Source of the DNA: an uncultured Chthonomonadaceae bacterium
GTDB taxonomy: Bacteria; Armatimonadota; Chthonomonadetes; Chthonomonadales; Chthonomonadaceae
Direction: 5' to 3'
DNA: 64,000 nucleotides
Assembly (NCBI GenBank): GCA_963835065.1
Contig: CAWIEK010000046.1
Location: 119,219-183,218 of the forward strand
Position numbers and translations under genes: made by a program. Positions within the stretch are counted from its first letter, which is position 1; every line of letters starts with the position of its first letter. This document shows positions 1,868-59,654 of the stretch, in pieces. Under the pieces are notes generated by a model that saw only the letters and a list, made by a program, of their open reading frames with translations, searched no databases and was not told the origin of the DNA.

Positions 1868-2239
1868 ATGCCTACGATCAATCAGTTGGTCCGCAAGGGC
1901 CGCAAGCGTCTGATTAAGAAGACCAAAGCGCCCGCGCTCAAAGGCAATCCGCAACTGCGCGGCGTCTGCCTCGTGGTGAAAACGGTCACGCCGAAGAAAC
2001 CGAACTCCGCGCTGCGTAAAATCGCCCGCGTTCGCCTGACCAACAAAACCGAAGTCACGGCCTACATTCCGGGCATCGGGCACAACCTGCAGGAACACTC
2101 CGTCGTGATGATTCGCGGCGGGCGCGTCAAGGACCTGCCCGGCGTCCGCTACCATATCGTGCGCGGCACACTCGACACCGCAGGAACCCGCGACCGCAAA
2201 TCCAGCCGTTCCAAGTACGGCACGAAGAAGCCGAAGTAG
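1868..2239 (+). CDS. rpsL: 30S ribosomal protein S12
   Basis: [32 protein letters not shown]; true start is ATG 1868. Confidence 0.99.
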
Positions 2240-2363
2240 AGTAGTCAGTAGTCAGTAGTCAGTAGTCAGTAGAAATGCCTGCTTCCTCATAGTTTTTGCG
2301 ACAATAATAGCTTGCAAGAAGAGGTTTTCTACTGACTACTGACTACTGACTACTGACTACTCT
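2238..2363. repeat. Palindromic tandem-heptamer element (AGTAGTC)n-spacer-(GACTACT)n
   Basis: About 5 units per arm, perfectly complementary; begins at the rpsL stop and ends just before the rpsG SD. Confidence 0.95.
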
Positions 2364-2379
2364 CCGACAGGAGACAACC

Positions 2380-2850
2380 ATGCCTCGTAAGGGAAAAAGT
2401 GTGCTGCGCGGGATTACGCCGGATCCGGTTTATGGCAACATTTTGGCGCAACGGTTTATCAACCGCCTGATGGTGGACGGCAAGAAGAGCGTGGCCGAAA
2501 AGATTTTCTACTCCGCGCTGGAACAATGCGAAGTTCGCGCCAAGCGTCCCGGAATTGAAGTGTTCGAGCAGGCCATCCGCAATGTCGCGCCCGCTGTGGA
2601 AGTGCGCCCGCGCCGCGTCGGTGGCTCAACCTATCAGGTTCCGACCGAAGTGCGCCCGGAGCGGAAGTACGCCCTCGCGTTGCGCTGGCTGGTCACGAAC
2701 TCGCGCAAGCGGGCCGGACGCACGATGGCCGAAAAGCTGACGGGCGAATTGATGGATGCCGCGAACGGAACCGGCTCGTCCGTGAAGAAAAAAGAAGACG
2801 TGCATCGCATGGCGGACGCGAACAAAGCGTTTGCGCATTATCGGTTTTAG
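2380..2850 (+). CDS. rpsG: 30S ribosomal protein S7
   Basis: MPRKG..PDPVY, RRVGGSTYQVP, ANKAFAHYRF. Confidence 0.99.
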   Translation: MPRKGKSVLRGITPDPVYGNILAQRFINRLMVDGKKSVAEKIFYSALEQCEVRAKRPGIEVFEQAIRNVAPAVEVRPRRVGGSTYQVPTEVRPERKYALALRWLVTNSRKRAGRTMAEKLTGELMDAANGTGSSVKKKEDVHRMADANKAFAHYRF

Positions 2851-2978
2851 GAAGTAGTCAGTAGTCAGTAGTCAGTAGTCAGTAGAAATACATGCCTACT
2901 CAGAACTTTAGTGTGAAAACAAGAGCCAGTGAGCAGGAGATTTCTACTGACTACTGACTACTGACTACTGACTACTTC
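2851..2978. repeat. Palindromic tandem-heptamer element (AGTAGTC)n-spacer-(GACTACT)n
   Basis: Same arms as 2238-2363 with a different spacer; starts right after the rpsG stop. Confidence 0.95.
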
Positions 2979-3497
2979 TTCGTGCCCAAATTGCTCGGCA
3001 CGAAGGGGGCTGCATGTTGTACAATAAAACAGCAACTTGTCGTATGGCAGGGCGCGTGTTACGCTGTCGAACGGGGTGTCTTCGGTAGGCCAATCGGCGG
3101 GTTGCGCGCTGGAAGGCTGCATCAACCGTTCACAACAGGGAAAAGCGGGCAAAACAATCCGGGACGGCAAATTGCCGTTCTTTGTTGCGAAAGCATCGTT
3201 TAATTCCGAGTTTAATTTCGGCCTGTTGGGAACGCAGCGTTTCGGTTGCGCTTGGCAGCGATTACGCGCCGCGCGATTGGCAGTACGGGTTGATTATTCA
3301 TTGAAATCAATCAGTAACCCCGGTGTTTACGCATCGGAGAAATAATTGGCATTTGAATGATCCTGAGAACCCACATTTCACCCGTGACACTCGAAGACGG
3401 CAGCGAGTGGACATGACTATTCCTTCGGAAACATTCGTAAGCAATTTGAACGCCGCCCGCGTCGGATGACCGGGCGAGGATAGACAGAAACGAAACT

Positions 3498-56339: not shown

Positions 56340-56618
56340 TGAAAGCGGCGAATCAGCAGTTGGACACTATGAAAGCGATAAACGAAGTTTTCCTTTAGGA
56401 GCGCGCGTAAAGTGCTTCGCTGTATGGCCTGCGGCGTAGGGCCGTAATTTATTCGTCCTGCGGACACAGCCTGTTGGTTCAAGAGTATTCTGTCCGAAGG
56501 ACAGTCGGCGGAACGCCCTACAGCGAAGCGCTTTAGCGCGTCGCCTACACAGCAAAGTTTACGAGTCATTGCATACCCTAAATATGCTTTGTTAGCGATT
56601 ATAAAATCAGGAGCCTTG

Positions 56619-58803
56619 ATGTTTCGCCCATCGTCCCTGCTGCTTGCCGCCTGCCTGTTGGCCCAAGCGGCGGCAGCGCAAAATACGACCCAACCGCCGG
56701 CCGCTCAAAAGCCTGCGCCCGCAGCGAACCCGGCGCAGACGCCGGTTCAACAGGCGAATCCAGCGCAAAAGCTGATTCCGCAGGCAAATCCGGCTCAGGT
56801 TCCTGCGCCTGCGCCGAAGTTTATTCCGCCCCGCGATCCTCGCCTGACTCCGCCGCGCGTACAGGAAACGACAACGCCGCCAGAAGTCAGCGTACCCGCG
56901 CCGCCACAGGCTTCGCCCGACGCGCCCCTGCGCCCGCTCACCGCTGATGACGCCGCCCGCATCGCGTTGCGCTTGCAGCCCAACATCAGCATTGCGCGGG
57001 GGGGAGTGGAAACGCAGCGCGGACGCACCCGGCAGATCAAAGCCGCCCTGATGCCCCAACTCACCGTCACCAGCGGCTACACCTTTGTACAAAATTTGAC
57101 CCACGCCGGACGAGGGGGAAGCCTTGCCGGCGGAACGGGAACCGGGATTGGCACGGGTACAGGAACCGGAACGGGCGGCACAACTGCCGGGGGAACCGGG
57201 ACAGGTACAAGCGGGCAAACCGGCAATCAAGGCGGCGCGACGGGTGGCGGAACCGGCACGGCGACACAGGGCAACGGTGGAGCGGGCAGTACAGGGACCG
57301 GAACAACAGGAACGGGAACGGGCGGCACAACCACAGGCGGCACGGGAACCGGAACAGGCGGCACGGGAACGGGAACCGGCAGTACCGGCAGCACGGGCGG
57401 CAGCGGCAGCACGGGTTCCGGGAATGGCGGCACTTCCAGTTCTGGCAATGGCGGCGCGACGGGCGGAACCGGGGGAACCAACACCGGAAGCACGGGAAAC
57501 ACAGGCACGGGCGGCACGAATGGCAGTGGCGGCACAACGGGTGGAACCGGCACAAGCGGCGGCACGACAGGCAGTGGAACGACGACCGGAACGGGAACCA
57601 CAGGTACAACCGGAACGGGAACAACGGGTACAGGAGCGACAGGAACCACGACCGGCACGACACAGATGGGATCGGGCGGCAGCGGGCAAACGACACCGGG
57701 CGCGACCACGCCGGGACAGACCGGCACAGGCGTCACGACGACGGGCAATTCAGGAGGGGGCACGTTAGGAAACGCTTCCGGCTTGATTCAGGGCTTTTTG
57801 TCGGAAGCCTCGCTGCGGCAGTTGATTTTCGACTTCAACCACACGCTTGATCTGGTGCGGCAAAGTTCGCAACTGGAAAAAGCCGCCACGCAGAATTTAT
57901 CGCGCGTCCAGTCCGACACCGTTTTGGAAGTGAAGCAGGCGTTTTACCTGCTCGTTCAGGATCAGCAGCAAGTTCAGGTGCAGGTATTGGAAGTGGAAAA
58001 CCGGCAGGCGCAGTTGGATCTTGGCGCGGGCGCGCTTCAATGTCGGTTTGGGACTGCCTATTGATATTGTCAACGCCCAAACCGCCAAAGCGGAAGCCAA
58101 CCTCAGTTTGAGCCAGGCGCGCGCCAACGCGGAGCAGGCGCGTATCAATCTGGCCCTGCTCATGGGCATTGATCCGCGCACCCCCCTGCAGACGGCAGAA
58201 GCGGGTGAGCCGCCGCTGACTACGGACGACGTGAACGCCCTTGCGCAGACCGCTCTGCGGCTGCGCCCCGAAGTGCTCCAAGCGCAGGCGCAGGTGCGCG
58301 CGTACCAATATGGCGTGAGCGCCGCCCGCAGCGTCAATGCCCCCGCTGTAACAGGCAGCGCCAACGTGTACTCGCGGGGCGATCAATTTTTGCCGCAGGA
58401 AACCGACCTGACCGTAGGCGTCGGCCTGACGTGGACGCCGGTAGACGGCGGCTTTCGGCGCGGGCAGGTGCAGGAAGCGCGCGGCAATCTATCCATCGCG
58501 CAGGCGCAGTTAAACGCCGCCCAACTCAACGTTACCTCCGATGTGGCAATGGCGTATGTGAACTTGCGCTCGGCGGAAGCGCGGGTTGGCCTTGCCATCG
58601 CGGATGCCGCCAATGCCGAAGAAGGCGTTCGCATCGCAACCGGACGCTACGCCACCGGCCTGGGATTGTTTCTGGACATTATCAACGCGCAAGCCTTTCT
58701 GCTGACTGCCCGCACCAACGTCGTCAATACCCAAAACGCCGTAGAGCAGTACCGCGTCGCCCTGCAACATGCCATCGGCAGCACGGTTCCGCCCCTGCGC
58801 TAA
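56619..58803 (+). CDS. TolC-family outer membrane factor with Gly/Thr-rich insertion (apparent indel near 58022)
   Basis: LTADDAARIAL..QP, LRQLIFDF, ALRLRPEV, RYATGLG..LDIINAQ. Confidence 0.88.
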
Positions 58804-58823
58804 AATCCTCAGAAAGCAAACCC

Positions 58824-59549
58824 ATGAGTCAGTGGATCACAGCGAAGCGGCTGGAAGGCTACCGAGACGATTACAAGCAGGAAAACGAAGACCGGGCTGA
58901 AATCATCGAAGCCGGGGACGCGCTGATTCTGGTGGTTGCGGACGGGGTTGGCGGGCGGGCGAACGGTGGGCCGGCGGCGCAGAAAACCGTAGACATCGCG
59001 CGCAAAGCCATCGGCGGCGAACGGCCCAATGACGAGGCGCAGATATGGGTGGAACGGCTGGCGGGCATTGATCGTATGTTGGAGCGCGACAAGAACGTGG
59101 GACAAACCACTGCCGTGATTGCCGCCGTCGCTTCCAACGGCTTCGGGCGCGGCGACAAGATCGTTGGCGCAAGCGTGGGCGATTCCGGCGCGTGGCTCGT
59201 GATGAATGACCGCGTGGAAGACCTGACGCAGCGGCAAATTGCCAAACCCCACCTGGGCACGGGCGCGGCCTCCCCCGTGCCGTTTCAATGCGACTGGAAT
59301 GAGGGTACGCTCTTACTCGGTACGGACGGCCTGTTCAAGTACGCCGATGCCGCCCGTATTGCCGAAATCGCCCGCCATTCCGATCTGGAACAAGCCGCGC
59401 AGCAGTTGATCGAACTCGCGCGGCTGCCCTCCGGCGCGTTTCAGGACGACATCAGCGTTCTCCTCTGCCGCCACAAAACCATCCCGGACGCCAAAACCGG
59501 AACACCCTCGCTGCTGAAATCCATCGGCAAGTGGCTGCGTAGGCATTAG
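58824..59549 (+). CDS. PP2C-family protein phosphatase
   Basis: ENED, VADGVGG, SVGDS, LGTDGL, DDISV. Confidence 0.9.
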   Translation: MSQWITAKRLEGYRDDYKQENEDRAEIIEAGDALILVVADGVGGRANGGPAAQKTVDIARKAIGGERPNDEAQIWVERLAGIDRMLERDKNVGQTTAVIAAVASNGFGRGDKIVGASVGDSGAWLVMNDRVEDLTQRQIAKPHLGTGAASPVPFQCDWNEGTLLLGTDGLFKYADAARIAEIARHSDLEQAAQQLIELARLPSGAFQDDISVLLCRHKTIPDAKTGTPSLLKSIGKWLRRH

Positions 59550-59654
59550 GCATCAGGCATTAGTACCAGTTGTGCATAGACTTTCACCTTCATTGTGCAG
59601 GGTTTAACCATGCAAGGCTGAACTAATGCCTAATGCCTGATGCCTAATGCCTAC
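59539..59654. repeat. Palindromic heptamer element (AGGCATY)n-spacer-(RATGCCT)n
   Basis: Overlaps the PP2C stop, between convergent genes. Confidence 0.9.

Follow-up and report, generated by a model that had tools for sequence, protein, structure and literature searches.

Inverted tandem-repeat elements in an uncultured Chthonomonadaceae genome share many sites, but mostly not repeat units, with those of related species

Repeat elements of the window

The window analysed here is a stretch of 64,000 nucleotides from the genome of an uncultured Chthonomonadaceae bacterium (G000:C46:119219-183218; the assembly, G000, comprises 8.0 Mb in 71 contigs and is 92% complete). It includes the ribosomal-protein genes from rpsL to rplE and, further along, an RND permease gene. 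Among the matches listed, the best named one for its S7 protein, at 76%, comes from a metagenome-assembled genome of Chthonomonadaceae, and a place in Armatimonadota is therefore likely. Between its genes lie elements in which a short array of tandem repeats (left arm) is followed by a spacer, or core, and by the reverse complement of the array (right arm). A scan for stems found 17 strong inverted repeats in the window and none in three shuffled 20-kb controls, and 14 of the 17 are such paired elements (Table 1). Together with the rpsQ-rplN element, whose left arm is decayed, they account for the at least 15 elements on one plan that a sequence-only reading of the window had proposed. Three solo arrays and one mosaic were also found, and the mosaic, which lies in frame within a gene, shows that the elements are not confined to intergenic positions, as that reading had held. 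The seventh repeat unit of its list, GTTGATA, was seen in the window only as solo right arms at 31857 and 42404. Between rpsL and rplE, eight of the 16 junctions hold an element, in line with the half that had been estimated.

Table 1. Tandem-repeat elements of the window. Unit families are named in the text after the window position of a member (e.g., 2238-type). G002 and G001 are related species described in the text.
Feature	Position	Strand	Remarks
Paired 7-mer element, rpsL-rpsG	2238..2363		33-nt arms, 56-nt family core; 131-bp insertion relative to the empty allele
Paired element of 2238-type family, directly after rpsG stop	2851..2978		Other unit and spacer in G002
Paired 7-mer element, upstream of rpsJ	7565..7654		8-mer unit in G002, another unit in G001
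Paired 7-mer element, rplB-rpsS	11985..12091		Left arm begins at stop codon; units differ in G002 and G001
Paired 7-mer element, rplV-rpsC	13334..13452		Same flanks, different unit in G002
Paired 7-mer element, rpsC-rplP	14712..14835		Unit is that of the 11985 element
8-mer element, rpsQ-rplN	16236..16350 (left bound approximate)		Only the right arm is intact, the left one being decayed; junction empty (10 nt) in G001
Composite element, rplX-rplE	17174..17340		GxxExxY-type outer arms around purine/pyrimidine 8-mer arrays; outer arms kept in G002
Solo left-form mosaic, 8-mer then 7-mer	19909..19978		Begins at stop codon
Paired 8-mer element	21721..21822		Found by stem scan
Paired 10-mer element, between convergent genes	30786..30907		
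Solo right-form 7-mer array	31857..31886		
Paired 7-mer element	32955..33036		Left arm shortened
Paired 9-mer element	37036..37190		Arms resemble those of GxxExxY cassette on contig C19
Solo right-form array	42404..42427		Terminates longer conserved repeat core
Paired 8-mer element	44190..44259		
In-frame mosaic, 8-mer left form and unrelated 7-mer right form	52285..52368	+	Loop of RND permease (50736-54320)
Paired 7-mer element, after RND permease stop	54326..54411		Spanned by independent short-read contig
Paired 7-mer element, between convergent genes	59539..59654		

The elements are not an assembly artefact, because a short-read contig obtained independently from a relative of about 96% identity spans the element at 54326-54411, and because the design is present in two other species. 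No contig was found that bridges the in-gene mosaic at 52285-52368.

Genes were called with a self-trained caller, which gave 6,561 genes in G000 and makes errors. The genome contains 2,874 arrays of period 7-10. Period 7 prevails (2,360 in a count of 3,056 arrays), so that these are dispersed short tandem heptamers for the most part. Grouping the arrays from families with at least five members gives 1,705 elements, 328 of them inside predicted open reading frames of 282 genes. The left form of each unit was set by majority; large families still give counts such as 101 to 0. The in-depth comparison covers two species of the same genus: G002, a sister species whose orthologous genes are 83% identical to those of G000 (2.19 of 7.5 Mb compared), and the more distant G001 (97% complete; 0.2 of 6.6 Mb compared).

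Anatomy of arms and cores

The typical arm is a module of about 30-35 nt, made of four units and part of a fifth, with a fixed phase at its start and end. Among period-7 arrays (n=2,221), 42% are 30-33 nt long and only 4% exceed 35 nt; shorter arrays of three and four registers are also present, and G002 has the same mode of array length. The mode at 30-33 nt and the fixed phase of the ends differ from the broad spread of lengths that slippage gives.

The cores were followed in the 2238-type family, which has 70 pairs, 63 of them with cores of 54-59 nt. The sequence-only reading had taken the spacer as unique to each element. These cores are, in fact, homologous, with 49% pairwise identity (29% when shuffled) and 63% identity to the consensus. 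The nearest other copy is 71% identical (median), against 63% with columns permuted, and the cores thus lack the near-identical interiors typical of miniature inverted-repeat transposable elements. All 66 matches of the core profile in the genome adjoin an array, and the core is mostly linked to its own family (57 of the 70, versus 14 others). Despite the divergence of the cores, 18 of the 70 copies have two perfect 33-nt arms, which would have a probability near 3e-5 per copy if arms had aged as cores did, a figure that lost or unassembled donors would weaken.

Variants mirrored in both arms of an element are also far above chance (163 versus 10.6). Repair of one arm from the other was considered as their source, but most of them are shared among loci (183, versus 7 that are private), while private variants on one side only number 87. 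Given that mirrored variants are mostly shared, and that composite mosaics share their linkers (see below), the modules appear to have been copied from donors rather than made anew. Of the proposal of a non-autonomous mobile family with templated synthesis of repeats, the first part, the mobile family, is supported by empty orthologous sites and by the cargo (see below), and the second is not supported, variants being mostly common to several loci.

Order of the arms and position relative to genes

Adjacent arrays form 500 inverted and 26 direct pairs across the genome, whereas inverted pairs average 34, with a maximum of 50, when unit labels are permuted (100 runs). This is what the genome-wide pairing of arms predicted by the sequence-only reading should give. 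A reverse-complement partner lies within 250 nt of 1,401 of the 2,874 arrays (false rate 0.2%). The order of the arms is fixed: it is left then right for 1,396 arrays with a partner and reversed for 5, with one orientation over about 60 unit types, and composite elements behave likewise (736 versus 5). Read from the outside inwards, an element thus presents the left form on both strands.

The position of the elements relative to genes is also constrained. In 394 paired elements between co-directional genes, the left arm lies within 10 nt of the stop codon in 80% of cases, and the stop is within the arm in 38%, while random insertion predicts 4% by base or 28% by junction. The right arm lies within 30 nt of the next start in 68%, against 10% and 42%, respectively. 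The left arm had indeed been described as often starting at or in a stop codon and the right one as ending a few nt before the next Shine-Dalgarno sequence. Solo arrays between co-directional genes are more commonly of left form on the transcript (300 versus 172). A short hairpin can form at 2364-2375 between the ribosome-binding site and the outermost part of the right arm, and similar ends occur at other sites.

Inside genes, neighbouring left and right arms are mostly of different units and mostly unable to pair (166 different, 9 same, none reversed). Between genes, 350 neighbours have the same unit, 211 different ones, a class that takes in some one-base variants, and 5 are reversed. Three abundant families with a stop codon in the left form have no left-form array on the coding strand and 50, 40, and 14 right-form arrays; two other stop-bearing left forms do occur there, 17 and 7 times. 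A gene-level frame test (30 of 48 in frame) was too noisy, and a local test gave 38 of 47. The mosaics comprise 56 unit combinations, which are non-random, and those of the same combination share linkers (score -0.04, compared with -0.22 to -0.36), indicating that mosaics themselves are copied between loci.

The stems fold in silico with -83 kcal/mol (z = -12.4), and this stability may explain why insertions are tolerated in operons. It would also fit structures selected by the host at the level of the mRNA, namely hairpins that rejoin stop codon and ribosome-binding site, stabilize the upstream mRNA, or serve as RNase III sites, with a unit free to drift. The same holds for the 58% of co-directional elements that abut both a stop and a start, for the conservation of sites between species, and for the cleavage by RNase III of the stem of the related Coxiella intervening sequence (IVS) (PMC4990558). 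Nonetheless, stem mismatches on the transcript show no excess of G-U (165 G-U versus 187 A-C; 104 versus 109 at tight junctions), cores are oriented at random relative to transcription (26 sense, 32 antisense), empty alleles exist at rpsL-rpsG and rpsQ-rplN, and in-gene mosaics keep their order although most cannot pair. The absence of a G-U excess, the random orientation, and the order kept without pairing point to strand-symmetric copying and not to host selection on mRNA stems, which is an improbable cause, although the sequence-only reading had considered it.

Genes enclosed by the arms

Small genes of two families are found between inverted arms. In G000, this is the case for all three PF05635 (four-helix-bundle) genes, with arms of 7-8-mers, and for all three PF13366 (GxxExxY) genes, with arms of 8-9-mers; the sequence-only reading had named both as candidates. 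The four-helix-bundle gene on contig C8 carries arms of the 2238 family; the window itself contains no cassette gene. In the relatives, all 12 full-length PF05635 matches are armed (partial and weak matches were left out), and so are all eight PF13366 loci examined out of ten in G001 and G002. These 20 loci score above the maximum of 100 shuffles, one of them marginally, and bring the cassette genes examined to 26, all armed. Their proteins match TIGR02436 and TIGR04256. The cassettes sit between protein-coding sequences and not in an rRNA gene; the rRNA genes themselves were not searched. Compared with G002, the GxxExxY gene on contig C19 carries a tandem duplication of 24 nt close to its start (G000:C19:8280-8330).

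It is conceivable that no dedicated protein is needed, if repeats born by slippage acquired inverted partners through template switching and were shuffled by host recombination, with the cassette genes as passengers. The arms, at 30-33 nt, roughly match the length that RecA requires; arms enclose other cargo too; and elements are present in G001, where a four-helix-bundle match was not found. This explanation is nonetheless unlikely, given the sharp ceiling of array length with fixed end phases, the single orientation over about 60 unit types, the rarity of private mirrored variants (7 versus 87 one-sided), and the arms around 26 of 26 cassette genes.

The closest, and only solved, relative of the four-helix-bundle protein is 2GSC, with five chains, which has been called a homopentamer (PMC4990558). 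A speculative assignment would have the four-helix-bundle protein form a ring of five subunits, which would read the arm's five repeat registers, and the GxxExxY protein, of PD-(D/E)XK fold, do the cutting; its grounds are the gene association and the five-register match. A dedicated rewriting system, in which the ring counts five registers and, with the GxxExxY nuclease, marks occupied sites for overwriting from the genome-wide pool, is a doubtful extension of this assignment. If true, it would mean a constant reshuffling of gene junctions and of loops in some 280 proteins, and would account for an excess of heptamer repeats that has long been noted in bacteria.

The cargo also bears a weak similarity to Avd of diversity-generating retroelements (27-32 bits with a cut-off of 80; E 1e-7 to 3e-6, below cut-off). 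This would fit a spread templated by RNA, in which hairpins are excised from transcripts as RNA and copied into breaks by reverse transcription, synthesis that aborts or switches at the two 3' ends gives mosaics of fixed order, and error-prone copying ages the cores. The stop-codon bias and the perfect arms around diverged cores agree with it. However, conservation of the core by base (A 0.68, C 0.58, G 0.59, T 0.67) reveals no adenine-specific change, there is no strand bias, and the two reverse transcriptases of G000 look CRISPR-linked and retron-like, with no link to cassettes. Mutagenesis of the diversity-generating type with a linked reverse transcriptase was therefore rejected, and RNA-templated spread in general is about as improbable as selection on mRNA stems. 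By eye, one of the reverse transcriptases lies beside cas6/cas1-like fragments (G000:C49:679200-683800), and the retron-like one is in an operon with 2238-type elements at its junctions (G000 C50:52482-56022).

Retention of sites and replacement of their content

The comparison with related species reveals sites that persist while their content changes. Of the eight ribosomal junctions that are occupied in G000, one is empty in G002, six carry a different unit there, and one has kept its outer arms; in G001, six are occupied, all by other units (both assessed by eye). For the 1,130 orthologous genes, an in-gene array is also present in G002 for 37 of the 48 genes that have one in G000, versus 6 of the 1,082 others. 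All 37 are at the same spot, where about 10 would be expected, and their unit sets are disjoint in 31 cases, overlapping in 5, and identical in 1. Junctions behave in the same way, with 89 of 174 occupied in G002 where G000 is occupied, versus 27 of 331 elsewhere. For 104 paired elements of G000, the corresponding site in G002 holds a paired element in 33 cases (the same unit in 3) and other arrays in 31. Where a shared site carries different units, its spacers are unrelated (1 of 27 at the 5% level), and the repertoires are specific to the species, several units with 100-220 arrays in G000 having none in the G002 sample, and vice versa. Since the same sites in the sister species carry different repeats, it is likely that they have been overwritten repeatedly by DNA-level copying of modules from other elements of the same genome.

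The extent of the exchange varies, from a cassette for a miniature or an empty site to a swap of one arm or both. A 432-bp four-helix-bundle cassette of G002 occupies the site of a 131-bp miniature of another unit in G000, and among orthologous GxxExxY cassettes, one has changed in the left arm only and another in both. Swapping of arms around a kept spacer was rejected as a general rule, given that orthologous spacers are unrelated, that single-arm swaps occur only in some cases, and that the 2238-type core mostly stays with its own family. The in-gene mosaic of the window corresponds in G002 to a mosaic that encodes a peptide of the same length but differs in its right arm; the loop is free of repeats in G001 and shorter in G008.

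The RNase P RNA provides a further case. In G000 (C46:28064-28509, L200) it contains an 82-nt heptamer-armed hairpin in putative helix P12, and another element begins directly after the gene. Of 16 sequences chosen from 28, with long ones favoured, G001, G003, and G016 have other units at this site, the array of G022 is one-sided, and in eight the loop measures 5-38 nt; the RNase P RNA of G002 was searched for and not found. A similar insertion is known from the RNase P RNA of cyanobacteria.

Empty orthologous sites exist as well, in support of a mobile family, e.g., at rpsL-rpsG and rpsQ-rplN. The rpsL-rpsG site (2238..2363) is empty in G002, where the rpsL stop overlaps the rpsG binding site, and in a relative of about 91-96% identity. 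An RNA contig lacking 2238-2368 belongs to this relative, with its empty allele, and therefore gives no evidence of splicing-out of the element. Clean empty sites have at most a 2-nt ambiguity, with no consistent motif and no consistent target-site duplication.

A model for the elements

The explanation that we favour, with a probability of roughly 0.58, is that the elements are selfish, non-autonomous miniatures of the four-helix-bundle and GxxExxY cassettes, which seed behind stop codons and overwrite occupied sites from a genome-wide pool. New sites would be seeded mostly just behind stop codons and would survive where the stop, the ribosome-binding site, or the reading frame survives. An occupied site would then be a preferred target; after breakage or invasion, one or two donors would supply its new content, giving matched pairs or mosaics with the order always kept. 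Conversion against hundreds of identical arms would hold the arms uniform while the cores drift.

Several observations weigh against this explanation. For most of the large unit families, the 92% complete G000 contains no cassette that matches, and G001, with six PF13366 matches and none to PF05635, has elements all the same, though fewer (over 200 kb, 9.5 per 100 kb, versus 27.6 and 35.9). Four-helix-bundle proteins are not known to carry out any chemistry. At the 104 sites of paired elements, G002 has other sequence at 29 and nothing at 11, and shared sites could in part be independent insertions at tolerant spots. In long co-directional spacers (n=93), 46 elements are near the stop, 25 near the start, and 22 in between, and this preference for stop codons, which persists even in such spacers, suggests some connection with transcription or translation for which a model at the DNA level alone does not account.

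Other repeats and neighbouring genes

The longer core that ends in a solo right arm at 42300-42427 is common to many loci. Other palindromic repeat families, without tandem arms, lie at 38751-38924, 41950-42100, and 56408-56535, and at some sites G002 carries such cores within short arms. The second half of the ribosomal cluster (spc/alpha; G000:C49:665500-678600) bears about ten more elements. In the window, rplB, rplV, and rpsC (11125-14700) look frameshifted, rplB by one extra base relative to G001 and G002, and these are probably indel errors of the assembly. Small variable genes, some of them HEPN-like by eye, separate fusA from rpsJ (5740-7560) and rpsJ from rplC (8005-9367) and differ in content among G000, G001, and G002; tuf was not called between fusA and rpsJ in the window.

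Comparison with known systems

The family is real and has partial precedents in the heptamer pairs of Xanthomonas, the P6b replacement of Nostoc, and the IVS of Coxiella. In the latter, a 23S rRNA insertion with S23p, a four-helix-bundle gene lies between terminal inverted repeats that include tandem heptamers (PMC4990558). A PF05635/TIGR02436 gene between inverted repeats is shared with such IVS (3 of 3 in G000, 12 of 12 in relatives). However, the present cassettes and about 1,700 miniatures are found in RNase P RNA and in protein genes as well as between these, and there is a second cargo (GxxExxY).

The heptamers of Xanthomonas and Nostoc (PMC4692102) and of Beggiatoa (PMC4679880) also come in arrays of about four units and in inverted pairs near stops and starts, occur in ribosomal-protein operons, and are depleted between divergent genes. 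They are treated there as one unit per genome with the role of a G-quadruplex or regulatory site, while dozens of units coexist here, form in-gene mosaics, are associated with cassette genes, and take each other's place. The P6b stem of the Nostoc trnL intron has repeatedly been swapped whole for another heptamer class at the same site (PMC4476775); this concerns one locus and two classes, unlike the hundreds of loci, the protein loops, and the single-arm and cassette-for-miniature swaps found here.

The hairpins formed by repetitive extragenic palindromic (REP) sequences as doublets (REPIN), with their REP-associated tyrosine transposase (RAYT), are similar in having two inverted arms and a spacer, many non-autonomous copies, and the same arms around a candidate mobilizer gene (PMC3116915), and inverted doublets are over-represented here too (500, with 34 expected). 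The present arms, in contrast, are tandem arrays and not palindromic REPs, in-frame mosaics are common, and the cargo is PF05635/PF13366 and not a tyrosine transposase, although RAYT was not searched for.

The dispersed short tandemly repeated repetitive sequences (STRR) are heptamer repeats comparable to those of Xanthomonas, Nostoc, and Beggiatoa. Rickettsia palindromic elements are dispersed and tolerated in frame in protein loops as one conserved sequence of about 150 nt, while the present elements consist of modular arrays whose turnover leaves the site unchanged. Many bacteria contain heptamer arrays, and to our knowledge no origin has been agreed upon for them.

According to PMC4679880, no mechanism is evident. 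A literature search of partial coverage found no paper that links the arms to both cassette genes or describes genome-wide replacement. New here are a measurement across the genome of how sites are retained while their content is replaced, the contrast between arm and core, and the tests against selection at the RNA level. G000 ties heptamer arrays to two small protein families of unknown function, and the replacement known from a single locus in Nostoc becomes a countable, genome-wide process, by which loops of some 280 predicted proteins are rewritten as well. With its constant arm size, its fixed order, and the retention of sites, this process is directly testable.

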